DNA from: an uncultured virus (IMG/VR IMGVR_UViG_3300019371_000141)
Taxonomy: Duplodnaviria > Heunggongvirae > Uroviricota > Caudoviricetes
Reading direction: 5' to 3' (one strand)
Virus record (IMG/VR): IMGVR_UViG_3300019371_000141
DNA length: 64,000 bases
Numbering within the stretch: position 1 is the stretch's first letter; every line of letters begins with the position of its first letter. Under the pieces are notes generated by a model. The model ran no database searches. It saw only the letters and a program-made list of their open reading frames with translations, and was not told the DNA's origin. The translations under genes and the position numbers were made by a program. Positions 3,344-62,258 of the stretch are shown here, one piece after another.

Positions 3344-3374
3344 AAGATGCTCAGGTGGTATGAGAGGTGATATT

Positions 3375-15175: not shown

Positions 15176-16141
15176 ATGGAGGTCGTATCACTTTTTAGTG
15201 GAATAGGAGGCCTTGATAAAGGTTTTATTAATGCTGGATATAAGGTTGTCTGGGCGAATGATTTTGACAAATACGCTGTGGAAACATATAAAGCCAACTT
15301 TAGTCACCCGGTGGTGCTAGGGGATATAAATGAAATTCCACTCGAAAGCATTCCCCGTCACGATATACTTATCGGCGGCTTTCCATGCCAGCCTTTTTCG
15401 ATGATGGGCGCACAGAGAGGGTTTGAAGATACCAGAGGCACTTTGTTTTTCAGAATAGCAGAAATTATTAAGTATCAGATTGATAATAATCGTAAGCCTA
15501 AGGCTGTTATACTTGAAAACGTAAGAGCACTAAAAACGCATGATAACGGAAGAACATTCAAGACAATCGTGCGTGTAATAACGGAGAATCTTGGATATAA
15601 GGTTTTCCCGATGATATTAAATACAGCTGATTATGGAATACCTCAAACGAGAAACCGTATGTATATTGTTTGTTTTGCAAACGATTCTGTTAATGATTTT
15701 TCGGCACCGGAAAAAGTGGCTTTGACAAGGACTATGAAGGACTATTTGGAACATGGAGTTGAGGATAAATATTTCCTCTCTGAGAAGATCCTTCCTACTA
15801 TACTGTCAGATGGAACGGGTGGGTATAAGGCTCATTCTGAAATAGACCTTGATATTGCAAGGCCCTTGTGTGCAACAATGGCAAAGATGCACAGGGCATG
15901 TCAGGATAATTATGTAACGGACAATAGAATCGATGGGACGGAAGGCATCAGAAAGCTTACACCGAGAGAGTGTGCAAGACTTCAAGGCTTTGACAGGTAC
16001 AACACATCTGATTATGTAATACCGGTATCTAATGCACAGGCATATAAACAATTTGGTAATGCGGTTACTGTGGATGTCGCCGAAGCCGTGGCAAGAAAAG
16101 TCCGTACTAAACTGGAAGAATTAGGAGAATGGCACTCGTGA
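15176..16141 (+). CDS. DNA (cytosine-5)-methyltransferase M1
   Basis: Motifs SLFSGIGG, GGFPCQPFS, LENV, PQTRNR, LTPRECARLQGF, QFGNAV. Confidence 0.95.
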   Translation: MEVVSLFSGIGGLDKGFINAGYKVVWANDFDKYAVETYKANFSHPVVLGDINEIPLESIPRHDILIGGFPCQPFSMMGAQRGFEDTRGTLFFRIAEIIKYQIDNNRKPKAVILENVRALKTHDNGRTFKTIVRVITENLGYKVFPMILNTADYGIPQTRNRMYIVCFANDSVNDFSAPEKVALTRTMKDYLEHGVEDKYFLSEKILPTILSDGTGGYKAHSEIDLDIARPLCATMAKMHRACQDNYVTDNRIDGTEGIRKLTPRECARLQGFDRYNTSDYVIPVSNAQAYKQFGNAVTVDVAEAVARKVRTKLEELGEWHS

Positions 16142-17577
16142 TATACGATACAGACATAAAAGAAATAGTTGCATTTATCAATGCAGCCGAATTACACGAA
16201 AGCGATAGTACAGCAGAAAAATGCTTGTCGCGGATGACAGAAAAAACTGAAGAAGAGTTTCTGGACAGTAGAGCAGAAACATTGTCTTCGCTTTGGAGTG
16301 ATGAGGAAGTAAAAAAAGCTCTGAGAAAGCTTTCGTCCATATGTAATGAATCAAACATCAGATGTGATGAATGCCCGGTAGCTAAGTATTGCAATCATTT
16401 TATTATGAATGCTAGAAAGAAGGTTGATAAATCGTCATTCACGATGGTGGATTTATTCTGCGGTGCGGGCGGTTTGTCATTAGGCTTCACTCAGGAAGGA
16501 TTTGTTACAAGACTGGCGAATGATATTCAAGACTGCTGTGTTGATACTTATGCCCACAACCATCCCGAGACACCTCGAAACAGGATAGTTCTTGGAGATA
16601 TTAAAAAGGTTGTTGATGACCTAGAGAGTATAATGGGTGGTGAGGAGCCCTCAATCGTAGTAGGAGGACCACCTTGCCAGGGCTTCAGTGAAGCAAATCG
16701 TCAGCGCTTAATAGATGATCCAAGAAACCATCTGTATAAGAGCTTTGTTGCGGTTGTAAGTAAACTTCAGCCACCTTTCTTTGTTATGGAAAATGTAAAA
16801 GGAATGCTGAAGGTTAAAGACCAAGTGATAGAGGATTTTAACCGTATTGGATATGAAGTTTCCGCTCATGTTCTGAATGCCAAGGACTTTGGCGTCCCTC
16901 AGAACAGAGAAAGGCTGATATACATCGGTAATAGAGTCGGAGTAGATAACGAGTGTATTTTTAACGATATATTCGAATTGAGCAAGACAATTCCTTATCA
17001 TACTCTTGGTGATGCGTTAGCTGGATTGAGAGAGCTGGAGGCATCAAGAATTAAGAATTCTACCGAGCTTGATACTGATGAGTCCGGCTATAAGATAGAA
17101 CGCAACAGATGCCAGTTAAACAATGATTACATCACATACATAAACCAAGGACGGAATTGTGGTATTGTTTGCAATCACAAGGCAAGATATAACAATGACA
17201 GGGATATCGAGATTTACGGAAGAATGAATCCGGGGGACAAGTCAGATGACCCTAAAATAGCAGATATTATGCCTTATGCGAGCAGAAATGATATTTTTAA
17301 GGACAAGTATTTCAAGCTAGAGGCAGATAAGGTATGCAAGACAATCACTGCCCACATGAAATTTGACTGTAATATGTATATTCATCCGACACAGGCAAGA
17401 GGGCTGACTCCAAGGGAAGCTGCAAGGGTTCAATCCTATCCCGATGATTATTTCTTTAGAGGATCATATACTAAAACTTATATGCAGATTGGAAATTCGG
17501 TCCCGCCTCTTTTGGGAAGGGCAATTGCGACTGTAATAAAACGCTATATTGAGAAGTATTATGGCACTTCTCAGTAA
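16129..17577 (+). CDS. DNA (cytosine-5)-methyltransferase M2 with N-terminal Cys cluster
   Basis: DLFCGAGG, GGPPCQGFS, MENV, PQNRER, LTPREAARVQSYPD, QIGNSV; ~100-aa N-terminal extension containing CX6CX2CX5C. Confidence 0.95.
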   Translation: MALVIYDTDIKEIVAFINAAELHESDSTAEKCLSRMTEKTEEEFLDSRAETLSSLWSDEEVKKALRKLSSICNESNIRCDECPVAKYCNHFIMNARKKVDKSSFTMVDLFCGAGGLSLGFTQEGFVTRLANDIQDCCVDTYAHNHPETPRNRIVLGDIKKVVDDLESIMGGEEPSIVVGGPPCQGFSEANRQRLIDDPRNHLYKSFVAVVSKLQPPFFVMENVKGMLKVKDQVIEDFNRIGYEVSAHVLNAKDFGVPQNRERLIYIGNRVGVDNECIFNDIFELSKTIPYHTLGDALAGLRELEASRIKNSTELDTDESGYKIERNRCQLNNDYITYINQGRNCGIVCNHKARYNNDRDIEIYGRMNPGDKSDDPKIADIMPYASRNDIFKDKYFKLEADKVCKTITAHMKFDCNMYIHPTQARGLTPREAARVQSYPDDYFFRGSYTKTYMQIGNSVPPLLGRAIATVIKRYIEKYYGTSQ

Positions 17578-17592
17578 TAGGAGGGGTTACAA

Positions 17593-19497
17593 ATGAAATT
17601 TGATGATGTTATAAAAACTGTAGCAGATACGCTCAGTAAAATTGGAACTACAATAAATACCGGTGATTATGACGGTGTTATTGTAAAGCGTCTGGAGGCT
17701 TCTAATACTTTAGATAAAGGAAGAACAACGAAGCAGTCCCATATAGCCATTACTGGCTCACAAATGGACATGTTTCCTTATCTCAGAGCAGATGGCTATT
17801 TCACGGAGGACTATGATAAGCAAGATCCAGAATTGAAGAAATATATGGTTGCTCAGATACCTGCATATCTTCATAAGGAGAATGTTGATTATTTGGGCGC
17901 TGTGGAGAAACTCTTTGACGGCGATTCCTTTAAGGCATATATAAGCATTGTCCGAAGCAGAAGAAACGATGCAGCTGATCAGATACAGATGTCGATGACA
18001 TATATGGACTCGCCTGAATATGTTGCGTACAGAAGGATAGTACATACTGGCAGTTGTATGATCATGCTCAAAAGGAGGAGCGAATTTGAATATGACTTAT
18101 ACTGTGTTAAACCAGAAGACAGCCAGGACTTAGCAGCATTTAATAATGTTTTTGTAAAACTGCCCACAAATACGGCTGTGAAAACAGATGAGATGGTTGG
18201 AATAAAAAGGAACATGAAAACTTCTCCCGCCACCAACATCCTCCTCTACGGTGTTCCCGGCTGCGGAAAGTCCCATACCATAAAGACACAGTACTGTGAT
18301 GATGACAACTACATGGAGCGCGCTGTGTTCCACCCGGATTATACATACTCAGATTTTATAGGTCAGATACTGCCGAAGGTTACCGATCACAAGGTTTCCT
18401 ATGAATTCGAGCCGGGACCTTTTACAAGAATTCTCAAGAAAGCCGCTGACCCGGAGAATAAGGACAACTACTATTACCTGGTTATCGAAGAAATCAACCG
18501 CGGCAATGCTCCGGCAATCTTCGGTGATGTTTTCCAGCTCCTTGACCGCGACAGCAACGGCGTGAGCGAATACGGTGTCAGCAATGAGGCTGTAGCAGAA
18601 GTTGTCTACGGTGATAAAGACCACAGGGTTAAAATCCCTTCAAACCTCTTCATCCTTGCAACGATGAACTCGTCCGACCAGAACGTGTTCACGTTGGATA
18701 CCGCTTTCAAGCGCAGGTGGAAGATGAAACTGATTGAGAATGATGTTGATGCCTGCAAGTATGCATCACATTCCGTGTGCGGAACTTCTGTCACTTGGGC
18801 AGCGTTCGCTAAAAGGATAAACGACCTCATCATAGAGGTAAAAACAGATAATCTCAGCAACGAGGACAACCGTCTCGGGGCTTATTTCGTAAGTGAATCT
18901 GAGCTTGATGATGCGGATGCATTCGGTGAGAAAGTTCTTATGTATCTGTGGAATGATGCCTTCAAGTATGACCACGAGAAGGTTTTCAAAACGCAGTACA
19001 GAACCCTTGATGAGCTTATTAAAGGATTCAAAGATACTGGTTTCAGTGTATTCGCCGATAACGTGAAGTTCCCGGAGAGCACTGAGGATGACGATGAGGC
19101 TATAGATTTTACTTTGGATAGTGGGTCGGGAGAAATTCAGATTGAGAGGTATCTTTCCGGCAAGAAGGATCATCTGATTGAATACTATAAGCGCCTTCTT
19201 GACGTGGTAAAGAAAGATGTCCCGGATTTAAGGGATGCCACGGTCGGTTCACTTCAGTATGCATCATGGAGAGCACCCGGTCTTTCAAAGGTAAGCTTTG
19301 CCGATATAAAAATCCGCAAGGACAGAATCGTTATTTTCACGGAGCAGCCTTCCGGAGACGGCCTGCAGGACATAGGCGAGGTTCTGCCTGTTAATAACCA
19401 CAGAAACCATTATTTCAAAATTATTTACACGGGTGACCGCACGGATGATGTCGCCAGTGCCATTGTCGAGTCCTATGAAAAACTGAAGGTGAATTGA
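17593..19497 (+). CDS. McrB-like AAA+ NTPase subunit (LlaJI R1-like)
   Basis: Walker A GVPGCGKS, FHPDYTYSDF, Walker B IEEINRGN, McrB signature TMNSSD...AFKRRW. Confidence 0.9.
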   Translation: MKFDDVIKTVADTLSKIGTTINTGDYDGVIVKRLEASNTLDKGRTTKQSHIAITGSQMDMFPYLRADGYFTEDYDKQDPELKKYMVAQIPAYLHKENVDYLGAVEKLFDGDSFKAYISIVRSRRNDAADQIQMSMTYMDSPEYVAYRRIVHTGSCMIMLKRRSEFEYDLYCVKPEDSQDLAAFNNVFVKLPTNTAVKTDEMVGIKRNMKTSPATNILLYGVPGCGKSHTIKTQYCDDDNYMERAVFHPDYTYSDFIGQILPKVTDHKVSYEFEPGPFTRILKKAADPENKDNYYYLVIEEINRGNAPAIFGDVFQLLDRDSNGVSEYGVSNEAVAEVVYGDKDHRVKIPSNLFILATMNSSDQNVFTLDTAFKRRWKMKLIENDVDACKYASHSVCGTSVTWAAFAKRINDLIIEVKTDNLSNEDNRLGAYFVSESELDDADAFGEKVLMYLWNDAFKYDHEKVFKTQYRTLDELIKGFKDTGFSVFADNVKFPESTEDDDEAIDFTLDSGSGEIQIERYLSGKKDHLIEYYKRLLDVVKKDVPDLRDATVGSLQYASWRAPGLSKVSFADIKIRKDRIVIFTEQPSGDGLQDIGEVLPVNNHRNHYFKIIYTGDRTDDVASAIVESYEKLKVN

Positions 19498-19507
19498 GGA
19501 ACTGCCT

Positions 19508-20782
19508 ATGCTTAAGGAATACTGCAGTGTGTGCAACTTCGCGGATGACGGTTTCATAGGCCTTGAGTTCAAGGACGGCAGGCCGCATATTACATTTCCG
19601 AGAGGTTACCACAGGTCAGAAAAGGATGAGGATGTCCGCAGGGATATTCTTCATCTGCTGGCAATACTCGAAAAATTTAATGATAAGAAAGAAAGCGCGG
19701 ATAAGAGGGATACGGACGATGGCAGTGACATATCCTTCCCTATCCACGCTTATCAGTACGTGATATACGATTTCCTTGCAAACGGTTACTACAGCGACAA
19801 GGACGTGGAGTACAGGACTTCTGACCGGGGGAAGATAAACTGGAAGAGAACCATCCAGAAGATAAAGCCGGTTGTTGACGTTGAGAACATTTTATATCTG
19901 AACTTCGTGACGAAGAAAAGTATCACAAAATCGGATATCATCACAAGGATTCACGAATACTGTGTTTACGAGAGCTTTTCAAAGCTCGGCTGGCTTTATC
20001 TTGACAGTGCGTATGTGCCGAGGAAACCGGGCATAAAGTTCAACCGTAAGATGTTCATATCAGTCCTCAATGATGCTTTGAAGAACACCTTCAATACCGC
20101 GAAGAAGAAACTGTTCCAGTCGATGCTTGATATCATCAACCAGGCAAACGAGAAGGCAGAGTTCTCGGATTATACCTACGGCGTTTCAAGGTTTGAATAT
20201 GTCTGGCAGAACCTCATCGACCATGTTATGGGTGAAGAGAACAAGGCTGATTACTTCCCTCATTCACATTGGAGGATCATTGACGGCAATATAAGCGTTG
20301 AAAACAGTGCCCTCGAGCCGGACACCATAATGCTTAAAGGGGACAAGGTGTTCATTCTCGATGCTAAGTATTATAAGTTCGGAATCGTCAGTTCAGCGGG
20401 CTTTCTGCCGGCCACATCCTCTGTGCATAAACAGATTACCTATGGCGAGTATGTAGCCACGAGCATGGGTGTTGACGGTAATGATATCTACAGTGCCTTC
20501 ATTATACCTTATGATTCGCAGGATAAAAAGTATCTTGATGAGAGTGGTGCGAGAACCGATGACGGATTGCGCTTCGTGAGCGTCGGACTGGGCGACTGGA
20601 TCAAGTACGGGAAAGACACTGAGAACTATAAATATGTGCTCGGGATTTTGATGGACACAAAGTATCTGATGGATACTTATTCAAGGCACAATCTTTCTGA
20701 GATAGACAGGATGGCTGAGTTTATCATGAGTTCGCTTGAAAGGTTCAAGGAAGCGGAATACGGGAATTCAGCCGGTAACTGA
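19508..20782 (+). CDS. LlaJI-family / McrC-like restriction endonuclease
   Basis: FPRGY, GKINWKRTI, FEYVWQ, PD...DAKYY nuclease motif, KQITYG; directly follows the McrB-like gene. Confidence 0.85.
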   Translation: MLKEYCSVCNFADDGFIGLEFKDGRPHITFPRGYHRSEKDEDVRRDILHLLAILEKFNDKKESADKRDTDDGSDISFPIHAYQYVIYDFLANGYYSDKDVEYRTSDRGKINWKRTIQKIKPVVDVENILYLNFVTKKSITKSDIITRIHEYCVYESFSKLGWLYLDSAYVPRKPGIKFNRKMFISVLNDALKNTFNTAKKKLFQSMLDIINQANEKAEFSDYTYGVSRFEYVWQNLIDHVMGEENKADYFPHSHWRIIDGNISVENSALEPDTIMLKGDKVFILDAKYYKFGIVSSAGFLPATSSVHKQITYGEYVATSMGVDGNDIYSAFIIPYDSQDKKYLDESGARTDDGLRFVSVGLGDWIKYGKDTENYKYVLGILMDTKYLMDTYSRHNLSEIDRMAEFIMSSLERFKEAEYGNSAGN

Positions 20783-20796
20783 AAAGTGGTGACCCC

Positions 20797-21246
20797 ATGG
20801 CAGATGTTTTAACACCGGAACAGCGCCGGAAGAACATGCAAAATATCAGATCCAAGGACACGGAAATCGAAATACTGCTCCGTAAGGCTCTGTGGAAAAA
20901 GGGCTACCGGTACAGGAAGAACTATAAGGACTTGCCCGGAACGCCGGACATCGCGCTGACGAAGTATAACATAGCCATCTTCTGTGACGGCGAATTCTTC
21001 CACGGAAAGAACTGGGAAGTGCTGAAACCGAGGCTTGAGAAGAGCAATAACAGCGAGTTCTGGATTAAGAAGATAAGCCGTAACATGGAGCGCGATGACG
21101 AGGTTAATAAATCCCTGCTGTTTTTAGGCTGGACTGTGATCCGGTTCTGGGGCGATGAGATTAGGAAGAACACAGAGGAGTGTGTCAGGGTGGTTGAGGA
21201 GACGGTGTTTGAGATGAGGATGGGTGAGAGCTCACTGGATGAATAG
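20797..21246 (+). CDS. vsr: Very short patch repair endonuclease
   Basis: MADVLTPEQRRKNMQNIRSKDT, LPGTPDI, FCDGEFFHG, GWTVIRFW. Confidence 0.95.
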   Translation: MADVLTPEQRRKNMQNIRSKDTEIEILLRKALWKKGYRYRKNYKDLPGTPDIALTKYNIAIFCDGEFFHGKNWEVLKPRLEKSNNSEFWIKKISRNMERDDEVNKSLLFLGWTVIRFWGDEIRKNTEECVRVVEETVFEMRMGESSLDE

Positions 21247-21290
21247 TCACAGGGGCATTTGAAATTGTAGCACAAAATTTGGAGGAAGTT

Positions 21291-23630
21291 ATGGCGGGTT
21301 GCAAAACAGAAAACTGGACTGTAAAAGATATTGCAGAAGCACTTCAGAATAATCATAAGGATAACAAGGTCATTGTTGTGCCGATGTTCCAGCGTGGGCA
21401 GAGGTGGAAAAAAGAGCAGCAGAAAATCTTTATTGATTCTCTGATCAAGGGTTATCCTGTAGGCGCATTTCTTTTCTTTGAGAAATACGAAAACAATCAG
21501 TTTACATACATACTGGTGGATGGACTGCAGAGAGGCAGCTGCATCCGTAACTATATTACGAATCCCACGGAGTTCTTTGAGAATGAAAGCATCCCTGATG
21601 AGGTTTGCTCATCTATTCTTGAACTGATCGGTGTGAACAAAACTGAAAACTATGCTGTTGTCAGAGATAAGCTGACAAACTTTATCAAAGCCCAGAATTC
21701 GTTTAAAAACCTGATGTTCTTTGAAGTTGCCGGGGAGATATGCGGCATATTCAAGGAAGGATTCGATTTCACCCTTGTCAATGAAGTTACCAAGCTGATC
21801 ATGGCGTTTTTTAAGGATAAGCAGGATTTGTATGAGTCAATTGCATCTGTTTCTCTTCCTGTGAATGTTTACAGCGGTCCGGAGGAAACCCTGCCGGAGA
21901 TATTTGAACGCATCAATTCTAAAGGTACTCCGCTTGACCAGTATGAGATATATGCTGCAGCCTGGCCGGTAAAAGATAAGTTCGTCATACAGAATTCCGA
22001 AATCATAGAGTACGTTGTAAAGAAATACGACACCCTTGTCAACGCCGGATATACTATTCATGGTTATAACAGCGAAGAACTGCGTAAAGAGAAAAAAGTA
22101 AACGCCTTTGAGTATCTGTTCGGTCTCAGCCGATATCTGGTAAACAAGTATGATATTCTTGCTTTTAATAAGAACATAACTGATGATGCTGTGAATCCGC
22201 TTGCTTTCGAGCTTGTCAACGCCTGCCTTAATGATGCTGACAGAATCCGTATCCTCTATAAGAACATAAAGGATCTTGACATCAATGTATTTGAAAAGGC
22301 TTTGACTGATGCTATTGAGTTTGTCAGGGATTCTGTTTCTGTGGTTACACGATTTAAAGGCAATGCCCACAACGCAAATAAGATATTCCATTCGAAATAT
22401 CAGATTATGTCTATGATATCCACATCGTTCAAGGAAATGTATCCGGACGGTAACTACAAATCAGTGGATGCCGGATGGGCTGCAAAGAAGCAGACAATAG
22501 CAAAGAATCTCGTTCAATATTACGTCTATGATATTATAACGAATTACTGGAGCGAGGGCGGCACCGGCAAGATACACGCGGCTGCCAAGCCTAACAGATA
22601 TATGTCGGAGATTTCAGGAAGGAGCTGGACTGTTGCTCTTGACGGTTTCTTTGAAAAGTCAATGATGCGTTCAGAAAAGAAGAATGTAGCCAGCCCGAAG
22701 AGCGAGGAGTTTGTCCTTCTTAACTGTATTTATGTGAAGACTTTTACGGCGATGGATCAGCTGTCCATTGACAAATTCGATGTTGAGCACATAGCTCCAA
22801 AGGAGCAGATGCGTAAACTGATTGAAACATGCAGCGGTGACGGTCTTCCGATCAGCTGTATTGCAAACCTCTGTTATCTTCCGCAGACGGCAAACAGGAG
22901 CAAGGGCGCTAAGAATTTCTATCAGGACAAGAAATATCTTGTGAGCAGCGGTATGAACCTTGATGAAATAGAGGAGAAGTACAGCTTTACCGAAGAAGAG
23001 GATCTCGAATGGATGGATATGCCGTACGAAAAGCCCGATGACTTTTCTGTTCTGAAAGAGTATTACATCGATTACTGCACGAGAAGATTTGATAAACTTA
23101 AGCACATGTTCTGTAACGCCATGGGAATTTCATATGTTGATTCCAAGGATGCTGTTGAAGAGAAAACAGAAGTGGTTGTGTCGGCGGATAAAGGTAAAAA
23201 AACCACACAGGTCAGATTTTCTGATAAATGTGTTCAAAGACTTGCCGACAATATGGGCGAGGATCTTATCGGTCTGAGCAGATCGGTGTTCAGAACATCT
23301 GATAAGGCGTTCGGCTATGCTGTAACAACATCAAAAGTGTATCAGCAGGGCTCGAGGGAGAAATACTGGTTTGCTTACAGAAGAACGGAACTGATAGATG
23401 ACTGTGCGCAGAAGTATTACATTTTCGGATGCGGAAACGAGTCCACCCTCATCCGTCTGCCGGTAGATCTTATAGAGAAGAATCTTGACAGGCTGAACAT
23501 CTCACTTGATGAAGATGGAAAGATTACACACTGGCACATGGTGTTCTTCAAGGATAAGAGCGGCCATATGACCTGGATGTTCTCAAAGCCGGAGATTGAG
23601 GAAATAAGTGTGGACGAGTATCTGGTGTGA
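21291..23630 (+). CDS. DUF262 + HNH protein (GmrSD-like modification-dependent nuclease)
   Basis: VPMFQR..RW, VDGLQR, FERINSKG (DUF262 motifs); DVEHIAP...NLCYL...NRSK (HNH/DUF1524-like); GGAGG RBS before ATG 21291. Confidence 0.8.
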   Translation: MAGCKTENWTVKDIAEALQNNHKDNKVIVVPMFQRGQRWKKEQQKIFIDSLIKGYPVGAFLFFEKYENNQFTYILVDGLQRGSCIRNYITNPTEFFENESIPDEVCSSILELIGVNKTENYAVVRDKLTNFIKAQNSFKNLMFFEVAGEICGIFKEGFDFTLVNEVTKLIMAFFKDKQDLYESIASVSLPVNVYSGPEETLPEIFERINSKGTPLDQYEIYAAAWPVKDKFVIQNSEIIEYVVKKYDTLVNAGYTIHGYNSEELRKEKKVNAFEYLFGLSRYLVNKYDILAFNKNITDDAVNPLAFELVNACLNDADRIRILYKNIKDLDINVFEKALTDAIEFVRDSVSVVTRFKGNAHNANKIFHSKYQIMSMISTSFKEMYPDGNYKSVDAGWAAKKQTIAKNLVQYYVYDIITNYWSEGGTGKIHAAAKPNRYMSEISGRSWTVALDGFFEKSMMRSEKKNVASPKSEEFVLLNCIYVKTFTAMDQLSIDKFDVEHIAPKEQMRKLIETCSGDGLPISCIANLCYLPQTANRSKGAKNFYQDKKYLVSSGMNLDEIEEKYSFTEEEDLEWMDMPYEKPDDFSVLKEYYIDYCTRRFDKLKHMFCNAMGISYVDSKDAVEEKTEVVVSADKGKKTTQVRFSDKCVQRLADNMGEDLIGLSRSVFRTSDKAFGYAVTTSKVYQQGSREKYWFAYRRTELIDDCAQKYYIFGCGNESTLIRLPVDLIEKNLDRLNISLDEDGKITHWHMVFFKDKSGHMTWMFSKPEIEEISVDEYLV

Positions 23631-23864
23631 TCGCAGATTATTAAAACATCGAAGCATTTAATGACTGAATGAAGTTGAAATAAAAAATGTTCCCCGTTTT
23701 CATAGATTATAAGAGTGGTAGATGTTTGCGGCTTTTATATTTTTGGAAGCGGGGCTTTTTACGGCAATTCCTCCATCATGTGTTGTAAGCTGGGGTGCAT
23801 AAGAAAAATGACGAGAACTTCAATCATTCGTCAAATAAGCATTTCTTTACAATATAACCCGATA

Positions 23865-23949
23865 ACGCTACGCATAATGGCGTATACGCTACGAATAATG
23901 GAGAAACGCACCGCAATACCTTGACAACGCTCCGAGTATGTGCTATAAT
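23865..23949 (+). promoter_or_regulatory. Consensus sigma-A promoter with phased direct repeats
   Basis: TTGACA (23921)-17 bp-TATAAT (23944) with TG extension; ACGC(T/A)(A/C)CG at 23865, 23886, 23906 and 23927. Confidence 0.8.
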
Positions 23950-23978
23950 AAAATAGTAACGGAAGGAGGAAACCGCCT

Positions 23979-25076
23979 ATGTTTTATACGGAGATTACAA
24001 AAATCATAGAAGCCGGTATGAGAAAAGACCCGACGAAAGTTGCGAGCTATGCTCGCCTCTTGGCGAAAAAACTAAAGACTGACGGTGATGAGAGAGCAAG
24101 CAATCGCGTCCTATCTGTGATAGAAAAAATGGGAGGCAGTCAAGCTGTTGTTGACACTCTGATGGTAATGCCTGTAGATCAGGAAAGCAGACTGGATATT
24201 GCTGAAATTGATTATTCCCCCAATATTGATAGCATCATTCTGAACAAGTCTGTGCAGGACTTGCTCGATGATTTCAAGGATACAATACAAAATAAGGAAA
24301 AGATGATGTCTGTCGGTCTTGATTTTCGAACGACTCTTCTTCTCTACGGACCTCCTGGATGTGGGAAAACCAGTGCTGCGAAATATCTGGCTTCTGTGTT
24401 AAACCTTCCGCTTATAACGGCAAGGTTTGATACTCTGATATCATCCCTTCTTGGCAATACAGCGAAGAACATTCATCGCATATTTGAATTTGCAAAAAAG
24501 CAGCCGTGCATTCTTTTCCTTGATGAATTCGATGCAATAGCCAAAGCTCGAGATGATGCTCATGAACTGGGTGAACTGAAAAGAGTTGTAAACAGCTTGC
24601 TACAGAATATTGACGATTTCTCACAAGAAGGAATTCTTATCGCAGCAACAAATCACGCAGATATGCTTGATTCAGCGGTTTGGAGGAGATTTCAAACAAT
24701 CATCGAACTGCCGACACCTGGCAGTGATGAAATTCGTAGATTTATCAACCAGTTCCCTAAAGTGGCAAATGAAGGAAGCATTACTGAGTCACAGTGGAAG
24801 ACGATTATTAATGCTATGACAGGACTTTCTTATTCTGATATTAAGGATATTGTACAGAATATGCTGAAGAAGGCTGTTCTAAAGAGTAAAACAGAAATAG
24901 AAAGCGCTGATTATCTCGTTGAGATATTTATCTTTAATAATCACGGTAATTACGGGCAGGATGAAATCATTCATTATTTGTATGAAAACGGTGTCGCTCA
25001 AAAACAGATAGGAAGATATTTCTCGATATCTGAACGGCAGGTTAGAAATCATCTCGGGAAGGGGGTAAATAGCTGA
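23979..25076 (+). CDS. ietA: AAA ATPase, IetA-like, with C-terminal HTH
   Basis: GPPGCGKT, LFLDEFDAIAKARDD..ELGELKRVVNSLLQ, AATNH..LD.AVWRRF; coupled to the S8 protease gene. Confidence 0.8.
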   Translation: MFYTEITKIIEAGMRKDPTKVASYARLLAKKLKTDGDERASNRVLSVIEKMGGSQAVVDTLMVMPVDQESRLDIAEIDYSPNIDSIILNKSVQDLLDDFKDTIQNKEKMMSVGLDFRTTLLLYGPPGCGKTSAAKYLASVLNLPLITARFDTLISSLLGNTAKNIHRIFEFAKKQPCILFLDEFDAIAKARDDAHELGELKRVVNSLLQNIDDFSQEGILIAATNHADMLDSAVWRRFQTIIELPTPGSDEIRRFINQFPKVANEGSITESQWKTIINAMTGLSYSDIKDIVQNMLKKAVLKSKTEIESADYLVEIFIFNNHGNYGQDEIIHYLYENGVAQKQIGRYFSISERQVRNHLGKGVNS

Positions 25077-27517
25077 TGGATAAACTACTTCCGATTAAAT
25101 TCTTCGAAAAAAGGAAAATAGATGAGCAACTGACTGAGGCCGGTGGAACCAAGGATTTGCCTAAATGGGTTATGCAAGGAGACGAACTTTCAGCGCGTTC
25201 AAAGCATCTTGTAGGGAATATGACACAGGTCGCCGCTAAATTTGAGAATCATAAAAGGACTGCACATGAGCTTCCTATGGTAATGGCTACCACAATTACA
25301 GAAAAGGCTCTTGCGAAAACACATCGTAGCACGGTTGTTGATATGTTGAACAGTGACAGCCAGCCGAACGTTATTGGTATCGAGTCTGTTATTTTACCAG
25401 AGACTCATAAAGAAGATAATGAACCGGTTCAAGTCAAAAAGGATGATGAGCCGAAAGAAATACGTCGTCTTTTATCAATTGTTACGACGGATGAACTTGT
25501 TGCCAACATTAATCGTGCACTACATGATACGCAGAGCAATGCCCGACTGATATCCTCCATCGAAAATATAGAGCCTTTTGAGGCGAGGGTTGGAGAATAT
25601 AACCCTGAAAATAAAGCTTATCGTGTAAGGCTGATTGATTATCAGGATCCTCATAGAAATCAGCTTGCTCAGACGCTGTTCAGAAACCAGTGTATGACAA
25701 ATGGAATAACCATCGACAGAGAAACGCGTTATTCTCCAGATATGCGAATCTATAGAATAACCCTTGACAGCATAGCTGACATGGAAACTGTGAGAGGTTT
25801 TGAGGGAGTATTCTCTATTGAGGAAGCTGTTCCGATTCGTGCTGATATGGATGCCTTTGACGATATGTCAGTACCGGATGTTAAGCAACCGAAATCAGGG
25901 GTTGTTTATCCGGTTGTAGGTGTTCTTGACAGCGGAATAAAAAGGAACGCCTATCTTTCCCCTTGGCTTCTGGATGAAAGTGAGACCTATTACGGTGATG
26001 AATTGCAGGATAAAAGCCATGGGTCAATGGTTGCGTCCGTACTGGAATATAGCGATGAAATCAACGCTACAGATTATGCTTCTACTGAAGGCGTAATGAT
26101 GCTTGAGGCGGTTATCGCTCCGGATTTACATAAGGAGGCAATATACCCGGAAGACCTGCTTGATAATGTCCGTGACGCCATTGAGCGACATAGAAATATA
26201 AAAATATGGACAATGTCGGCCGGAACAACTGAAGAAAGCGAGCCGGATTCTTTTTCGGAATACGGTATGGCTCTCGACAATATTGCGGATGAGAACAATG
26301 TGCTGATAATCAAATCAGCTGGGAACAGTAGTGCTTTTATGCGAAGCGCACAGCCAGAACGGATTGCCAAGATGGCTGACTCAGTTAGGTCTTTGGTTGT
26401 CGGTTCTATTGCCGGAGAGAAATCGACATATGATTTTGCGGAAATCGATATGCCTTCACCATTTACCCGGAGAGGGCCTGGCCCTGTTTATATTATCAAG
26501 CCGGATCTTGTTGCATACGGAGGCAATGCCGGTATAAGACCGGATGGAAAACTGACAACAACAGGAGTAAAGGTTTTTGACGGTGATGGAAGACCTACCA
26601 GAGCGCCGGGAACTAGTTTCTCCACACCATGGATAGCGAGGATAGCCGCTGAACTCGATTTTCTTTTGGATGGTGATTTTGATCCACTTCTAATAAAGGC
26701 ACTCTTGGTTCATAATGCAAGCTACCCTGCGGGGGAGCGCATGAAGATGGAAGATAAGAAAAAATATATGGGCTTTGGAATGCCGTCTGGAACGAGAGAA
26801 ATTCTATACAACTCTGAAAATGAGATAACACTTATTTTACGAGACAAATTGCCGAAAGGCAGTTTTATAGACATTCTCGATTTTCCTTTCTCACAGAGCA
26901 TGATCGGGGATGACGGGATGTACCACGGTCAGATAATTCTCACGATGGTCAGCACCCCGATTTTAAGGTCATCCGAGGGACCTGAATACTGTCAGTCTGA
27001 TATTAAAGTGGCGTTTGGCACTATGGAGGGCATTAAAGAAAGAGATACATCAAAGAGAACCATCCGAAATCCGTATGGTGCAGAGGATGCTGCCAATGTG
27101 ATGCGAGATGACCTTTATAAGAGGCAGTTCTTTGACGTGCTTGAAGAAGAAACATTCGGAAGAGAACGTACATTACTGCGACTCGGTCAGAAATTCCATC
27201 CCATTAAGAAATACGCTATTGATCTTGATGAAATGACTGATGCAAACAAGAAAAAATACCTTTTAGGAAATCGTCAGTGGTATATGAAGGTTGAGGCTCT
27301 TTTTCGTGATGCAGTTGAGCGAGAAGCCAGATCAACTGGAGAAATACTCGAACAGGATTTTTGTATACTTCTTACCATACGGGATCCATCGGGGAAGGCG
27401 CCTGTCTATACCGAGATAACACAGCAACTGCAGGAAAAGAATTTTGTATATTCCAATATTAGACTTAAGAACGAGGTTAGAGAACATGTTCGTGTTGAAG
27501 GAGATGGTAACGGTTGA
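25076..27517 (+). CDS. ietS: S8 subtilisin-like serine protease, IetS-like
   Basis: Catalytic motifs VLDSG, HGSMVAS, SAGN, GTSFSTP; no signal peptide; TGATG coupling to the ATPase. Confidence 0.85.
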   Translation: MDKLLPIKFFEKRKIDEQLTEAGGTKDLPKWVMQGDELSARSKHLVGNMTQVAAKFENHKRTAHELPMVMATTITEKALAKTHRSTVVDMLNSDSQPNVIGIESVILPETHKEDNEPVQVKKDDEPKEIRRLLSIVTTDELVANINRALHDTQSNARLISSIENIEPFEARVGEYNPENKAYRVRLIDYQDPHRNQLAQTLFRNQCMTNGITIDRETRYSPDMRIYRITLDSIADMETVRGFEGVFSIEEAVPIRADMDAFDDMSVPDVKQPKSGVVYPVVGVLDSGIKRNAYLSPWLLDESETYYGDELQDKSHGSMVASVLEYSDEINATDYASTEGVMMLEAVIAPDLHKEAIYPEDLLDNVRDAIERHRNIKIWTMSAGTTEESEPDSFSEYGMALDNIADENNVLIIKSAGNSSAFMRSAQPERIAKMADSVRSLVVGSIAGEKSTYDFAEIDMPSPFTRRGPGPVYIIKPDLVAYGGNAGIRPDGKLTTTGVKVFDGDGRPTRAPGTSFSTPWIARIAAELDFLLDGDFDPLLIKALLVHNASYPAGERMKMEDKKKYMGFGMPSGTREILYNSENEITLILRDKLPKGSFIDILDFPFSQSMIGDDGMYHGQIILTMVSTPILRSSEGPEYCQSDIKVAFGTMEGIKERDTSKRTIRNPYGAEDAANVMRDDLYKRQFFDVLEEETFGRERTLLRLGQKFHPIKKYAIDLDEMTDANKKKYLLGNRQWYMKVEALFRDAVEREARSTGEILEQDFCILLTIRDPSGKAPVYTEITQQLQEKNFVYSNIRLKNEVREHVRVEGDGNG

Positions 27518-28839: not shown

Positions 28840-29460
28840 TTATTTGGATAAAATTTTACGATAAGCATCTATAAGGATGTGGTAATCGTCCTCATCATAA
28901 ACACCGCTGTCGAATTTTTCGAATGTGTCGATGAATTTTTGAATGAATTGATTTACCTTGATGTTTTCGTGAATCTCTGGCCCTTTAGCGAGGACTTCAG
29001 CCTGGATATCATCAAGCCTGAATTCATCGAAGTATGTTGGCGGTGTTATGTAGTTTGGAAAATAGAACGCATCATATTTTATTACCTTATCCTCATATTG
29101 TGGCAGACCATATTCATCAAGATATGGACCGGGAACCTTTTCTTTAACCTCATGGTCGAAATGGACAACAGTGTAGTGGGAGATAAGACTCATGAAAAAG
29201 TCACAGATGGCTTCAGAAGACATAGGGCGAGATTCGCGGTTACGGCCGACCAGCTCATCGATAGATCTATCGAAATAGTCAGCAATCTTATAAACCTGTT
29301 CAAGCGTAAAGCTTCGGGTATTATTACCGATTTGAAGACACTTGTTCACATTGGACTGGGACATTCCAATCGCATCGCCAAGTTGCTGCTGGGTTATGTT
29401 TTTATCATGCATAAGCTTACAGATATTCTCTTTAAGAATGTCAAAATTCATATTTGGCAT
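28840..29460 (-). CDS. XRE-family HTH repressor
   Basis: NICKLMHDKNITQQQLGDAIGMSQSNVNK...VYKIADYFDRSIDELVG; divergent from the phage early operon. Confidence 0.85.
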   Translation of the reverse strand: MPNMNFDILKENICKLMHDKNITQQQLGDAIGMSQSNVNKCLQIGNNTRSFTLEQVYKIADYFDRSIDELVGRNRESRPMSSEAICDFFMSLISHYTVVHFDHEVKEKVPGPYLDEYGLPQYEDKVIKYDAFYFPNYITPPTYFDEFRLDDIQAEVLAKGPEIHENIKVNQFIQKFIDTFEKFDSGVYDEDDYHILIDAYRKILSK

Positions 29461-29696
29461 AAAATATCACTCCTTGTCATAAAAGGTTTAAAAAGTCATA
29501 TATATGAAAGATTGGAATATATCATAACACATTTTGTATAATTTTTGTAGTGGTTAAACTTGAAAAAATCATTAAAAACCTGTAGCCGCACAAAGGAGGG
29601 CGGCAGAATAAGCCTTACAGGTCGCAGGCTTTAAAAACGAGCTGCGGCAATCCCGGATGCCGAAAATCTCCGGGGAATTATAAAAAACATATTGCA

Positions 29697-29930
29697 AAGT
29701 CCGAATAGCGCTATAAGGACGGCGGAATACATAAAGAGTCATTTTAACCGCGCTGGTATGAAAAACCATCTGTGCGAAGAATGACGAAGATGTATCCGGA
29801 CCGTTTGATTTCGTGCGCCTGTTTCAGGACTTAAGCTGTTATTCAGCTGTCGAATGCTTACGAGCCTGTGGACATCTTCACCGCAGGCTCTTTTTGTATC
29901 CCGACCGTCTACGCTCCCGGACGGAAAGGA
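29697..29930 (+). ncRNA. Putative structured leader RNA / attenuator of the early operon
   Basis: Nested stem 29697-29832; terminator GAGCCTGTGG/CCGCAGGCTC-TTTTT at 29862-29895; alternative pairing of 29717-29738 with 29888-29910. Confidence 0.55.
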
Positions 29931-29937
29931 CATGAAG

Positions 29938-30786
29938 ATGAAAAACATCAATATCAATGGAAATGTATGTATCAACGGAAATGTAACAGTAGAGGTAACA
30001 GATGCAAAGTCTGAGAGCGGCCTCAACATCACAGAAAACACAACACTCGGCGAGCTCATTAAGCTCCTGAATCCCGGAAATAAGCCGTATGAAACTCCCA
30101 CACCTAAGAAGCTCCGTGAGAATGCAGGTGATCCTGTAGCTCATTATCCCCTTCTGGAAGTTAAGTACTTCGGTTATGAAGATTCATCCTTCGCAGATGA
30201 CACTCCTGACACGGAGAAAGGATGCACGGTTTATTCCAACGGTTACGCGGTCTATGACAACGGCTCCGGCAGGACAGTTCTCTGGCTTCCTGACTGCACG
30301 AATTTTACATATGTGTTTAACAAGCCGAAGCCCTCGGAGGAGGGATCACTTCCGTATAAAGATACGCTTCCCGATGGAATGCTGGAATCCCTGAAATGGT
30401 TTACTGCGGTAATGCTCGTCGGTGACCACAGAGTAGATAACAACCTCATGAATCGTAAAGGCAGCCGCAAAGGAACAAGAGATTATGCCACTGACGATTA
30501 CGGCGATAAAAGCGGCGCGGCTGAGGATGCTGTAGATGCCGAATACAGAGATGCATTCTTCTGGCGTGAGGGCAGGTTCGGTGAGGACCCTCTTGAGGTA
30601 TTGATCAGAGAGGAGAGAAACAGAGAGATTCTTGATGCACTGACGGAAAAGCAGAGAGAGGTTTTCATCCTTTACTACAGAGAAGGTTATACACAGATGC
30701 AGATTGCGAAAATGCTGGGGGTGGATCAGACCTCAGTGCGTGACAGACTTGATGGTGCATTGAAAAAAATAAGAAAGATTTTCTGA
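29938..30786 (+). CDS. Sigma-70 region-4 (ECF-like) transcription factor
   Basis: C-terminal LDALTEKQREVFILYYREGYTQMQIAKMLGVDQTSVRDRLDGALKKI; AAGGA RBS (alternative start 29932). Confidence 0.8.
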   Translation: MKNININGNVCINGNVTVEVTDAKSESGLNITENTTLGELIKLLNPGNKPYETPTPKKLRENAGDPVAHYPLLEVKYFGYEDSSFADDTPDTEKGCTVYSNGYAVYDNGSGRTVLWLPDCTNFTYVFNKPKPSEEGSLPYKDTLPDGMLESLKWFTAVMLVGDHRVDNNLMNRKGSRKGTRDYATDDYGDKSGAAEDAVDAEYRDAFFWREGRFGEDPLEVLIREERNREILDALTEKQREVFILYYREGYTQMQIAKMLGVDQTSVRDRLDGALKKIRKIF

Positions 30787-44833: not shown

Positions 44834-45625
44834 ATGTACGAAAAGGTAAATCCAGGTCATCCCGACAAATGCGCGGATAGAATAGCCGGCGCCATAGTCG
44901 ATGTGGCTTATGTAAAAGAAAACGATCCGAAGATAGCAGTGGAGGTTCTGCTCGGTCACGGTGAGTGCCATATCATCGCAGAGACTTCTGTATCCATTCC
45001 GCAGCATGAGGTGGAGATGATCGTAAAGCGTATCGCAGGAAATGTGATCTGCCACTACAGAGAAGTTCCCCAGGACGGCATTCTTGCCGACAACCAGTCG
45101 CAAGGTTTCCGCTGCGGTGACAACGGCATTTTTAAGGGAATGCCTGTGACCGATGAGCAGAAGAAACTCACCGAGATCGCAAACAATCTGTATAACATCT
45201 ACGGCTGTGACGGCAAGTATATCCTTGACGGCAGGCGCCTGATCATCTGCCAGAGCAATGCTGACAGTAAGCACATAAGGGAAGTGTATCCGAAAGCCGA
45301 GGTCAATCCTCTGGGCGACTGGACAGGCGGCAGTGATGTTGATACCGGCGCTGTAAACAGGAAGCTCGGATCCGATATGGGAGATTCCGTTACGGGTGGA
45401 GGACTTCACGGCAAGGACTTATCCAAGGCAGATGTAAGTGTAAATATCTATGCTTTCCTTAAGGCACAGGAGACAGGCAGGCCTGTGGAAATATCCTGCG
45501 CAATCGGGGATGACAAGGTGGACGGCAAGGATTACTCAGAGATCGTTCAGACAGCAAGGGAGTATATCAATTCCCTCGGCGGCTTTGAACGGTTCGCGGA
45601 ATGGGGGCTGATCAGAAATGAGTGA
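44834..45625 (+). CDS. metK: Compact phage S-adenosylmethionine synthetase
   Basis: EKVNPGHPDK, GDNG, DTGAVNRKL, GGGLHGKDLSKAD. Confidence 0.85.
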   Translation: MYEKVNPGHPDKCADRIAGAIVDVAYVKENDPKIAVEVLLGHGECHIIAETSVSIPQHEVEMIVKRIAGNVICHYREVPQDGILADNQSQGFRCGDNGIFKGMPVTDEQKKLTEIANNLYNIYGCDGKYILDGRRLIICQSNADSKHIREVYPKAEVNPLGDWTGGSDVDTGAVNRKLGSDMGDSVTGGGLHGKDLSKADVSVNIYAFLKAQETGRPVEISCAIGDDKVDGKDYSEIVQTAREYINSLGGFERFAEWGLIRNE

Positions 45626-46913
45626 TAAGAAAACAATAACAGAGTTTCAGCTCGTTGATGTCAGTAAGCTCGTTCCGTATATCAATAACGCAAGAACACA
45701 CAGTCCCGAGCAGATAAATAAACTGAGGGCTTCGCTCCGGGAGTTCGGTTTTGTAAATCCCGTTATCATTGATAAGCAGTTCAATGTTATCGCAGGCCAC
45801 GGAAGGCTTGCAGCAGCCAAGGCTGAAGGCTATGTGGAAGTGCCGTGTGTGTTTGTGGACGAGATGACAGAGGCTCAGAAGAAAGCATATATCCTCGCCG
45901 ATAACAGAATGGCGCTCGATGCCGGATGGGATGAAGAACTCTTAAAGGTCGAACTGGAAGCCCTGCAGGGTATGGATTTTGATATCGGGCTGACAGGCTT
46001 TGACGAGGACGAGCTCGCCGATCTTTTCGGTAATGATGCAGAAGGCAAGGAAGATGACTTCAATGTGGAAGAAGAGCTGGAAAAACCGTGCTTTTCTAAG
46101 GCAGGCGATATCTGGCATCTCGGCAGGCATACAGTTATCTGCGGAGACAGCACAAAAGAGGAAACTTTCAAGGCTCTCCTTGGAGATACCAAGGTCAATC
46201 TGGTATGTACAGATGCACCGTACTTTGTAAACCTCGACAGTGCCAGTGGAAAGATAAAAAACGATGACCTGAACGATAAAGAGGGCTATGAGTTTTTAAT
46301 GAAAGCCTTCACGAACTTTAAAAACGCTATGGCGACAGATGCATCGTTTTATGAGTTCTATGCTACATCCAAGAGCCGTATTTTTTACGATGCTTTCGAG
46401 GATGCAGGCTTCAAGGTAGGCGCAGGTCTTATCTGGAGAAAACCCAGAGCGCCGCTTTCAAGAACGGACTGGAAATTCAATATGGAACCCATCATCTTCG
46501 GATGGAGAAAAGACGGCAAGCATAAATGGTACGGCGATCAGAAACAGACCGCCGTTTTTGATTTCGATGGAATCAAGAACAGCCGAGAGGACGGCTGCGG
46601 TCATCCAAGCTCAAAGCCTGTGCCTTTAATTGCCTATCTTATAAAGCAGAGCACACAGACAAACGGCATCGTGCTTGACGGTTTCCTCGGATCCGCCTCG
46701 ACCCTTATCGCCTGTGAGCAGATAGACAGAACCTGCTACGGCGTGGAGTTCGAGCCGAAGTTCGTGGATGTTGCCGTGGAGAGATACAGAAAATATCTCG
46801 CAGATAATAACAGTAGCGCTGATGTATATGTAATCAGGGACGGACAGCGTATTGAATATAACGATGTGCCGAAACCGGAGGAGGGAGAGCAGAATGGAGA
46901 AAACACAGAATAA
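45618..46913 (+). CDS. ParB-like domain + N4/N6 DNA methyltransferase
   Basis: PYINNARTH...IAGHGRL (ParB-like); TDAPY, HPSSKP, DGFLGSASTL. Confidence 0.88.
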   Translation: MSDKKTITEFQLVDVSKLVPYINNARTHSPEQINKLRASLREFGFVNPVIIDKQFNVIAGHGRLAAAKAEGYVEVPCVFVDEMTEAQKKAYILADNRMALDAGWDEELLKVELEALQGMDFDIGLTGFDEDELADLFGNDAEGKEDDFNVEEELEKPCFSKAGDIWHLGRHTVICGDSTKEETFKALLGDTKVNLVCTDAPYFVNLDSASGKIKNDDLNDKEGYEFLMKAFTNFKNAMATDASFYEFYATSKSRIFYDAFEDAGFKVGAGLIWRKPRAPLSRTDWKFNMEPIIFGWRKDGKHKWYGDQKQTAVFDFDGIKNSREDGCGHPSSKPVPLIAYLIKQSTQTNGIVLDGFLGSASTLIACEQIDRTCYGVEFEPKFVDVAVERYRKYLADNNSSADVYVIRDGQRIEYNDVPKPEEGEQNGENTE

Positions 46914-49095: not shown

Positions 49096-49110
49096 ATTAT
49101 GAGGAAAAAG

Positions 49111-49968: not shown

Positions 49969-50106
49969 TGTAGAAAAATAACTGCAAACATTCTGATAAT
50001 TCTTGCACATATCCGTTGACTTTTCAGGGCTTCAGAGTGATATATGTACTACGCTCGAAACCACATGATCGGGCTCGGGTGAATAAGAAAATGGAGGTAC
50101 TTAAGC

Positions 50107-50826: not shown

Positions 50827-51034
50827 AGAAACAGTTGAAAGAGTGAGGGCGCAGTACCCTGTGGGTTGCAGAGTGATCTTAAGGCGCATGGATGATGTTC
50901 AGGCTCCGCCCATCGGAACCAAGGGAACCGTTACAGGCGTGGATGATACCGCAAGCCTTCTGGTCCGCTGGGACAACGGCTCCGGGCTGAATGTGGTGTA
51001 CGGCGAAGATTATGCCGAGAGAATAGAAGAATAA
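50810..51034 (+). CDS. DUF4314 protein
   Basis: YPVGCRVIL..MDD.QAPPIGTKGTV.GVDD...VRWDNGS.L..VYGED. Confidence 0.85.
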   Translation: MRFPSKETVERVRAQYPVGCRVILRRMDDVQAPPIGTKGTVTGVDDTASLLVRWDNGSGLNVVYGEDYAERIEE

Positions 51035-51200
51035 CCGCATAAAAACCACTGTATTTCTGCGGCTGATATACACAATTATCCCTTGAAAATAAGGGGAAAA
51101 GATCGTGTAGTAATCGTATTGCTATATGTGTTTAATAACGCTAATATGTACACACCGAAGGGGGAAAACCCTATAAAACAAGGCTACGGAGGTACATACC

Positions 51201-52230: not shown

Positions 52231-52258
52231 GGAAAAAACAGAAAGGACGGTATACACC

Positions 52259-62241: not shown

Positions 62242-62258
62242 ATCAATCACCTCTGAAG

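Follow-up and report, generated by a model that had tools for sequence, protein, structure and literature searches.

Positions 29,691 to 29,931 of a 64,000-nucleotide stretch of DNA from an uncultured virus of the Caudoviricetes (IMG/VR record IMGVR_UViG_3300019371_000141; the whole stretch is called the window here) are one copy of a conserved leader of about 240 nt, which lies in front of an open reading frame (ORF) for a sigma-like protein. Two folds of this leader, termed OFF and ON, exist, exclude each other and have been kept by evolution. The leader is probably a cis-acting element of the phage early rightward transcript that gates the sigma-region-4 gene at two levels by one conformational switch. 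A first-pass annotation, made from the letters of the window, had suggested a two-state RNA switch, possibly an attenuator, before a sigma-like early gene, and this suggestion is borne out by the conservation and covariation of both conformers in homologues.

In the proposed mechanism the OFF fold would be the default, as the first fold to form during transcription and the predicted energy minimum. A 5' arm (29717-38) and a 3' arm (29786-804) would make a rod, the terminator at 29862-95 would form next and would end most transcripts, and in read-through RNA a segment X (29896-909) would fold onto GGACGG and the Shine-Dalgarno (SD) sequence (29919-30), leaving the ORF untranslated. In the ON fold, the 3' arm and the adjoining junction would pair with the 5' strand and loop of the terminator as an antiterminator, and the 5' arm would pair with the U-tract and X as an anti-sequestrator that leaves the SD free. 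With the rod open, the 5' arm could also park in a 5' hairpin (29691-728), whose loop would display a self-complementary sequence. Read in this way, the two folds would control termination and translation, and the leader would keep leaky transcription of the prophage early operon silent.

Two exclusive folds kept across the relatives

A sensitive blastn comparison with 50,697 phage records returned three phages that match the stretch from the terminator to the ribosome-binding site (RBS), Erysipelothrix phi1605, Ruminococcus NatCom_38182 and Streptococcus Javan630, and the entire rod is common to them. The locus collection was made with three independent sequence patterns followed by nhmmer confirmation. 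The terminator-derived pattern gave 81 IMG/VR loci, a looser pattern at least 123 genome contigs (33 of them confirmed by nhmmer among the matches listed), and a third pattern, built from the arms only, at least 121 metagenome contigs. The first nhmmer round produced at least 101 matches, in which the window copy is the most divergent full-length match at 150 bits, and the final round at least 222 matches in phage, prophage and metagenome loci, of which 208 are full length and 172 unique. Alignment A1 holds 52 sequences at less than 93% identity. By record title, the hosts among the matches listed are Clostridia, Erysipelotrichaceae, Negativicutes and Bacilli, including streptococcal prophages. 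Three loci (L145, L156 and L201) come from bins labelled Prevotella, Alistipes and Fibrobacter and may be mis-binned phage contigs; the remaining hosts among the matches listed are all Bacillota. The leader is rare per genome, the exact pattern being found in 0 of 401 genomes of the family of the nearest genome. The leader pattern was not found in the nearest virus record, the window-type arm pattern has no match among the viral contigs, the plasmids searched gave no match to the leader, and nhmmer detects no second copy of the motif within the window.

RNAfold of 29690-29945 gives a rod, a terminator hairpin and an RBS hairpin with a minimum free energy (MFE) of -89.1 kcal/mol and a z-score of -4.54, determined from 200 dinucleotide shuffles of which none (0/200) folds as well. 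Both the nested rod that had been listed from the sequence and the terminator placed at 29862-29895, upstream of the ORF, are reproduced in this structure. The alternative pairing of 29717-29738 with 29888-29910, likewise listed before, stands as well: the forced ON fold of the window reaches -80.4 kcal/mol, compared with the -89.1 kcal/mol of OFF, the pairing is preferred by RNAalifold, and compensatory changes are found at column pairs 135:319 and 134:320.

In A1 the 56 pairs of the OFF fold make up rod helices P1-P5, the terminator and the SD hairpin, and 91.7% of the cells are standard pairs versus 35-46% when the partners are slid. The ON fold consists of P5, a 19-pair antiterminator and a 20-pair helix between the 5' arm and the U-tract plus X, 49 pairs in all, and 93.0% of the cells are paired versus 40-49% when slid. 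RNAalifold on A1 picked the pairing of the 5' arm with the post-terminator segment, not the rod. The terminator, a G+C-rich hairpin with a U-tract upstream of the ORF as in known attenuators, is paired in 98.9% of the cells over 9 pairs in the 52 sequences. Compensatory changes between the 5' arm and X are seen at 135:319 (CG 26, UA 13, AU 9) and 134:320 (GC 38, AU 8); column pair 140:314 includes four CG pairs, the junction pair 220:279 is AU in 30 sequences and GC in 10, and all 7 pairs of P5 (columns 162-168/183-189) have changed on both sides. Covariation of both conformers in homologues, which the first-pass annotation had named as a check on its proposal, was found: both folds are kept, and compensatory changes fall in the ON-specific helices, the SD hairpin and P5. 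G-U pairs are frequent (GU in 31 sequences at 138:316 and UG in 36 at 279:302), which points to the plus-strand RNA as the structured form. The column pair 120:226, which at first seemed to covary, was rejected, as it is broken in further sequences.

The antiterminator was partly foreseen, in that the terminator loop had been described as complementary to GAAGAUG in the rod; this complementarity is confirmed, extends to approximately 19 pairs and has compensatory variants. The heptamer of the 3' arm and the terminator loop occur in the enlarged set as GAAGAUG:CAUCUUC in 125 cases, GACGAUG:CAUCGUC in two, and AACGAUG:CAUCGUU and AAAGAUG:CAUCUUU in one each, and the rest are nine G-U variants and approximately eight mismatched combinations. 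In a hand-picked set of 15 sequences, A2, pair 162:228 is GC in 10, AU in 2 and GU in 1, and pair 164:226 is AU in 11, CG in 2 and GU in 2. Over 97 distinct arm/terminator pairs, the native duplexes have a mean energy of -17.25 kcal/mol versus -15.92 ± 0.18 kcal/mol for permuted partners, and 0 of 300 permutations are as low. Sub-families among the metagenome loci (L231, L264, L302 and L259) feature terminators of unrelated sequence whose 5' strand and loop still complement the 3' arm of the same leader; in L231, it is the 3' strand of the terminator that holds the complementary segment. The antiterminator is, as in an attenuator, an exclusive helix that uses the 5' strand of the terminator and is conserved with compensatory changes.

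The second level concerns the SD. In 42 of 42 distinct post-terminator variants of A1, the U-tract and X fold onto GGACGG, the SD and the spacer, and both G residues of GAAAGG are paired in the MFE structure of all 42 and of 125 of the 126 variants in a larger set. The matched strands of this hairpin differ from variant to variant (GUAUUCC/GGAAUAC, GUGUCC/GGACAC and CUGCGUUCC/GGAACGCAG). In most members the 5' arm reads GGACGGCGGGAUGC, similar to the SD region GGACGGAAAGGAAUAC; both pair with X, which leaves the SD free once the ON helix forms. One conserved fold pairs the SD, and the competing helix of the 5' arm with X covaries, the arrangement of a translational switch by SD sequestration.

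Several observations weigh against a switch between two selected folds. The rod-specific helices P1-P3 are conserved with almost no covariation, and their sole double changes, at 138:208 and 141:206, come from the window copy. The 3' arm hardly varies, and column 135 of the 5' arm lies opposite a mismatch in the rod. The 15 sequences of A2 were chosen for their variation. The loci were gathered by sequence patterns, so that part of the apparent invariance is ascertainment and conservation is to be read across sets: of 78 unique sequences found via the terminator or SD patterns, 75 have the 3' arm core and 72 have GAAGAUG, and of 90 found via the arms, only 52 have the canonical terminator loop. 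The sequences are related, and the shuffle controls therefore overstate significance. Because OFF wins thermodynamically almost everywhere, the ON fold might rarely be populated. Lastly, no region-4 signal was found, by domain or PHROGs comparisons, in the downstream ORF of the L045 type.

The first-pass annotation had likened the leader to the P1 C4 and P4 CI RNAs. The P1/P7 C4 and P4 CI RNAs arise by processing and work in trans, at target repeats, and P1 C4 controls antirepressor cargo. A trans-acting immunity RNA of this style would be a terminated leader that persists as a stable small RNA and pairs with nascent early transcripts, enforcing termination or blocking translation. The default fold ends transcripts at the terminator and would mainly yield a discrete short RNA; the leader of one early or immunity operon has repeats of complementary elements, as in P1/P7 immI and P4; the operon of relatives has Rha/Ant antirepressors downstream, the cargo type found under P1 C4; and the exposed terminator loop and the palindromic loop could contact other RNAs. 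Against this, every conserved complementarity closes into two nested intramolecular folds and is explained in cis, both arms are buried in the rod of the terminated RNA, the window holds a single copy of the motif, and the Rfam C4 and related models have no match even at E <= 10; additionally, the hosts are Gram-positive, unlike those of P1/P7 and P4. The complement of the terminator loop at the start codon, also part of the earlier proposal, is true in the window; however, of 81 distinct start regions only one has GAAGAUG close to the start, and the start-codon target was rejected as a conserved feature. The string TGAAGATG occurs 10 times in the window. A processed trans repressor is accordingly not retained as the explanation of the complementarities, and an immunity RNA of any such kind is improbable.

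Leader-peptide control was considered on the alignment. A peptide MHPP-stop or MLPP-stop encoded in the 3' arm was rejected: the AUG of GAAGAUG is conserved, however, the in-frame stop is not, with CCGUGA, CCGUAG, CCGUUA and CCGCGA at the stop position and 15 codons in the window (read from A1, with no dedicated computation). Attenuation of the trp type by a leader peptide was not recognised, and the 5' arm of the window is without a conserved AUG (a reading of the alignment, with no dedicated computation). A T-box-like UGGN reading of the terminator 5' strand was rejected on its wrong strand topology and the lack of a model match.

Energy balance, palindromic loop and input

OFF is more stable than ON in 49 of the 52 A1 sequences, by a mean difference of -8.0 kcal/mol. 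Of 51 transcripts cut just past the terminator loop, 48 favour the rod over the antiterminator, with a mean difference of -5.5 kcal/mol and a range of -12.9 to +0.9 kcal/mol. Since OFF is the energy minimum nearly everywhere, the leader would be OFF by default and would need an input to turn ON. A host or phage factor or a small ligand that stabilises ON or the 5' hairpin may quite possibly pay the approximately 5-9 kcal/mol. It is less probable that the leader has no dedicated effector and that folding kinetics make it a threshold or fail-safe gate. Self-association of the RNA by way of the palindromic loop is an unlikely input, and some other kind of input has a comparably small chance.

One form of the ligand idea is a classical riboswitch, in which the rod or the 5' hairpin would be the aptamer for a metabolite or second messenger reporting host state and the remainder would be the expression platform. 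The combination of a terminator/antiterminator pair with an SD sequestrator/anti-sequestrator pair speaks for such a platform, and the energy gap of ~5-9 kcal/mol is within reach of ligand binding. Conservation across Clostridia, Erysipelotrichia, Negativicutes and Bacilli is far higher for the RNA than for the proteins that follow it, which fits a universal effector. However, the leader has neither a multi-helix junction nor an unexplained conserved core, nearly all conserved non-helical nucleotides belong to a helix of the other fold, and known riboswitch models have no match; a classical riboswitch is therefore doubtful. The cis switch with two exclusive folds does resemble the attenuators and riboswitch platforms of Bacillota (T-box, PyrR, TRAP and many riboswitches) in its four-segment logic, where segment 2 pairs with 1 or 3 and segments 3 and 4 form the terminator, and in having the terminated state as the default fold. 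It differs from them in lacking an Rfam match and a recognisable effector site, in a 5' arm with three alternative partners, and in working a separate SD sequestrator downstream of the terminator, which would gate transcription and translation together.

The 5' hairpin of the window is formed by AUUGC (29691-95) with GGAAU (29724-28) and GUCC (29699-702) with GGAC (29717-20), closing an apical loop at 29703-16. The freed 5' arm forms this hairpin spontaneously in antiterminator-constrained folds, and the relatives feature conserved AAUCUC/GGGAU and GUCC/GGAC. On A1, 93.4% of the cells of the 5' hairpin are paired versus 37-51% when slid, with two double changes, one of which is the window's own (AUUGC/GGAAU); support is mixed in wider sampling. 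The loop, of 12-14 nt, contains a palindrome of 6-10 nt with a core of GCGC or GGCC and flanks AU/UA that covary. A palindrome of at least 6 nt is present in 23 of 24 distinct loop variants, compared with 17% of shuffled loops, and the variants include UGCGCA, AUGCGCAU, AUGGCCAU, UGGCCA, AUAGCGCUAU, GAUGCGCAUC and GGCGCC. The flanking GTCC...GGAC is conserved in 49-52 of the 52 A1 rows, at a spacing of 12 to 14.

Rod pairing fails to explain the palindrome because the GGCC variants mismatch the invariant 3' strand, leaving 14 unpaired cells at 120:230 and 13 at 121:229 in A1. Pairing with the loop of the SD hairpin was rejected (native -4.83 versus permuted -4.72 ± 0.14), and no intramolecular partner that explains the palindrome was found in the rod or in the SD-hairpin loop. 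At the DNA level, the palindrome and the inverted repeats could be bound by a protein, as an operator or roadblock, or could serve as a signal for replication or packaging, and a G+C-cored palindrome of 6-10 bp, flanked by GTCC...GGAC and kept in nearly all members, is what such a site might look like. Against this, the other strand would have an A-C mismatch in place of each of the many G-U pairs, a U-tract and an SD stand at the ends of the helices, and the distance between GTCC and GGAC is not fixed (12 to 14). The 8-nt palindrome core has a single exact copy in the window, and a repeated operator was rejected on this ground. A DNA-level element deserves hardly any credence.

It is conceivable, at a low probability, that two nascent leaders kiss via their palindromic loops, lock their 5' hairpins and free the 3' arms for the antiterminator. 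A kissing duplex of 6-10 bp would cover the gap of 5.5 kcal/mol at the decision point. The loop is like retroviral dimer initiation sites and the homo-oligomeric phage-associated RNAs (ROOL, GOLLD and raiA) in a G+C-cored self-complementarity kept across GCGC/GGCC and AU/UA variants; unlike these, it belongs to a short mRNA leader, not to a genome-packaging signal or a large non-coding RNA, and its dimerisation is putative, read here from sequence. If the leaders do kiss, early-gene expression would climb cooperatively with promoter activity or phage genome copy number, and the lysis-lysogeny decision would have a counting device made of RNA only.

The gene behind the leader and comparison with known systems

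The ORF behind the leader encodes a protein whose sigma-70 region 4 covers residues ~220-283, with additional matches to SigF region 4 in the PDB (1.6e-4) and to TIGR02937 (1.1e-13). The Pfam, PDB and NCBIfam comparisons gave no match to sigma-70 region 2, and the 220 N-terminal residues match no Pfam family. The protein is sigma-like and not a demonstrated sigma factor, as regions 2 and 4 are not both present. The earlier placement of a sigma-like gene downstream of the leader is upheld for region 4 only, and the start codon, which had been put at 29933, is the ATG at 29932. The first-pass annotation had also cast the protein as the activator of the lytic cascade, a putative role. The best NCBIfam subfamily hint is the 'positive control sigma-like factor' NF005385 (E 2.9e-8), under the family cut-off. 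Region 4 is common to the window protein, NF005385 and Xpf of PBSX, and, as in PBSX, the gene adjoins a divergent repressor gene of the Xre/CI type; the 220 N-terminal residues that match no family set the window protein apart from Xpf. We know of no leader switch in front of xpf.

In the relatives the 3' end of the motif is always the RBS of an ORF, and these ORFs encode 127-284 amino acids. Sigma70_r4 or ECF matches at E < 0.01 are found in 10 of 11 relatives' ORFs tested, as well as in the window ORF, and the PHROGs families of these ORFs are phrog_11138, 13787 and 1740. The proteins of the window and of locus L018 align weakly, and the leader RNA is much better conserved than the proteins behind it. 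A protein-based search for related loci among the viral contigs found nothing, which makes the RNA, not the protein, the conserved handle. Upstream of the leader, the relatives feature divergent ImmA/ImmR or helix-turn-helix (HTH) repressors, joined in some cases by a small HTH or basic ORF that runs in the direction of the leader; downstream they feature Rha, Ant/KilAC, DUF2800 and SNF2. The early operon of relatives thus carries Rha/Ant antirepressors in addition to the gated gene.

This position recalls processive antitermination of the HK022 put or lambda nut type, in which the RNA alone or with a small basic phage protein would modify RNA polymerase to pass this and later terminators. In the lambda N leader/nutR-tR1 or the HK022 put region, the leader folds into a large structure with an effect on the translation of the first gene as well. 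Like those regions, the leader lies just past an early promoter or cro-like gene, between it and the delayed-early genes, and right before a terminator to overcome. Additionally, a small, very basic, Lys/Ser-rich ORF of 42-47 amino acids stands directly upstream of the leader and co-directional with it in L001 (2148-2276) and L003 (2129-2272), which are phi1605 and Javan630, and its product could be an N-like RNA-binding factor. The basic ORF is, however, absent from the window leader, neither boxA/boxB nor a put-like two-hairpin unit was recognised in the leader, and polymerase modification leaves the covarying antiterminator, the anti-sequestrator and the SD hairpin unexplained; read-through is accounted for by the covarying antiterminator instead. 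Processive antitermination is very improbable.

Rfam 15 has no match at gathering thresholds in the whole window, and at E <= 10 in 29440-29960 it gives five chance-level hits, none of them C4 (RF01695), c4-a1b1, T-box (RF00230) or a riboswitch; five typical relatives have no match at E <= 0.1. A match to a characterised Rfam family, which the first-pass annotation had said would remove the novelty, is thus not seen for the window or the five relatives, and the leader is a new family within the known kind of attenuator or riboswitch-like switches. Keyword and sequence-string searches of the literature found no paper on the leader, a coverage that lies outside the sequence files of PMC8040213 and PMC10690425. 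These are two large catalogues with thousands of unnamed candidate structured RNAs, and fragments of the leader may be listed there without a name. One sigma-associated phage candidate in these catalogues, DNAVirus_1961, is a 103-nt RNA from environmental samples with no terminator, and on these grounds it is probably different from the leader.

Features of the window and meaning of the proposed switch

The features of the leader and of the two genes that bound it are collected in Table 1. The prophage early region begins at ~28.8 kb within the window, and a 470-nt gap separates the HTH repressor gene from the gated ORF. The repressor protein has an additional NCBIfam match to the RstR-family repressors (7.5e-9), under the family cut-off. 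The candidate promoter would imply a leader of ~380 nt. Between 29552 and 29690 more hairpins are visible by eye, CCUGUA...UACAGG at ~29581-29622 and CGCAG...CUGCG at ~29624-29648 besides P0; in the relatives, 109 of 135 distinct upstream segments fold with z < -1, and their stem sequences differ. The linker insertion at 29834-29848 is not present in the other 51 rows of A1. The terminator was missed by a consensus terminator scanner because the scanner allows loops of up to 8 nt and the loop here has 9. Five short metatranscriptome contigs match the stretch (for example 29730-29896 and 29738-29888), as contigs that show no ends, strand or level.

Table 1. Leader elements and bounding genes, in window positions
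Feature	Positions	Strand	Basis
Divergent Cro/CI-type HTH repressor gene, 206 amino acids, bounding the leader region	28840..29460	-	Pfam HTH_26 1.8e-8, HTH_3 1.3e-6
Candidate extended -10 promoter TGTATAAT	29535..29542	+	by eye; promoter scan did not list it
Upstream hairpin P0, ahead of the motif	29652..29675	+	by eye
5' hairpin, available once the rod is open	29691..29728	+	antiterminator-constrained folds
Self-complementary element AUAGCGCUAU in the 5' hairpin loop	29705..29714	+	loop-variant comparison
5' arm; partner 3' arm (OFF) or U-tract plus X (ON); mimics SD region	29717..29738	+	folds and pair counts
P5 apical hairpin, in both folds; longer in the window than in relatives	29738..29785	+	pair counts
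3' arm plus junction (GAAGAUGUAUCCGGACCGU..GAUUUCG); partner 5' arm (OFF) or terminator 5' strand plus loop (ON)	29786..29813	+	pair counts
3' strand of basal rod helices P2 and P1 (UGCGCC...GGACUU)	29814..29832	+	RNAfold
Small hairpin AGCUG-UUAUU-CAGCU in linker insertion	29834..29848	+	RNAfold
Intrinsic terminator; stem 29862-71/29881-90, 9-nt loop 29872-80, U-tract 29891-95	29862..29895	+	RNAfold
Segment X (GUAUCCCGACCGUC); partner SD region (OFF) or 5' arm (ON)	29896..29909	+	pair counts, folds
GGACGG plus SD AAAGGA (29925-30), 3' strand of the SD-sequestering hairpin	29919..29931	+	MFE folds
Regulated ORF, 284 amino acids, C-terminal sigma-70 region 4	29932..30786	+	Pfam Sigma70_r4 2.3e-12

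The regulated ORF is followed by genes for a DUF2800 protein, an Enc34-type single-stranded DNA-binding protein, a family A DNA polymerase, an SNF2 helicase and a D5-type primase, and terminase, portal, protease and capsid genes lie farther right in the prophage. Among the structural genes, the segments 44834-52726 and 61096-62250 feature an ORF resembling the N-terminal domain of S-adenosylmethionine synthetase, a ParB-N6/N4 methylase, a C5 methylase, an amidoligase with a GGACT/AIG2 cyclotransferase, and a Fic protein on the minus strand. To the left of the prophage, 15176-27517 looks like a defence island with two C5 cytosine methylases, an AAA_5 ATPase, an LlaJI-type endonuclease, Vsr, a GmrSD-type enzyme, and a pair made up of an AAA ATPase and a subtilase S8 protein. 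In L097 and L118/L138, too, LlaJI or ABC-3C genes border the elements with the motif. A 3672-residue ORF at 3324-14342, also left of the prophage, has no Pfam match at E <= 1e-5.

The leader sits where the prophage commits to its early programme, before a sigma-like regulator and, in relatives, antirepressor genes. As a natural design it is compact, in that one strand exchange would gate termination and ribosome access together. The regulation of the temperate phages of gut and rumen Bacillota is poorly understood, and identifying the input to the switch would reveal what such phages sense before leaving lysogeny.

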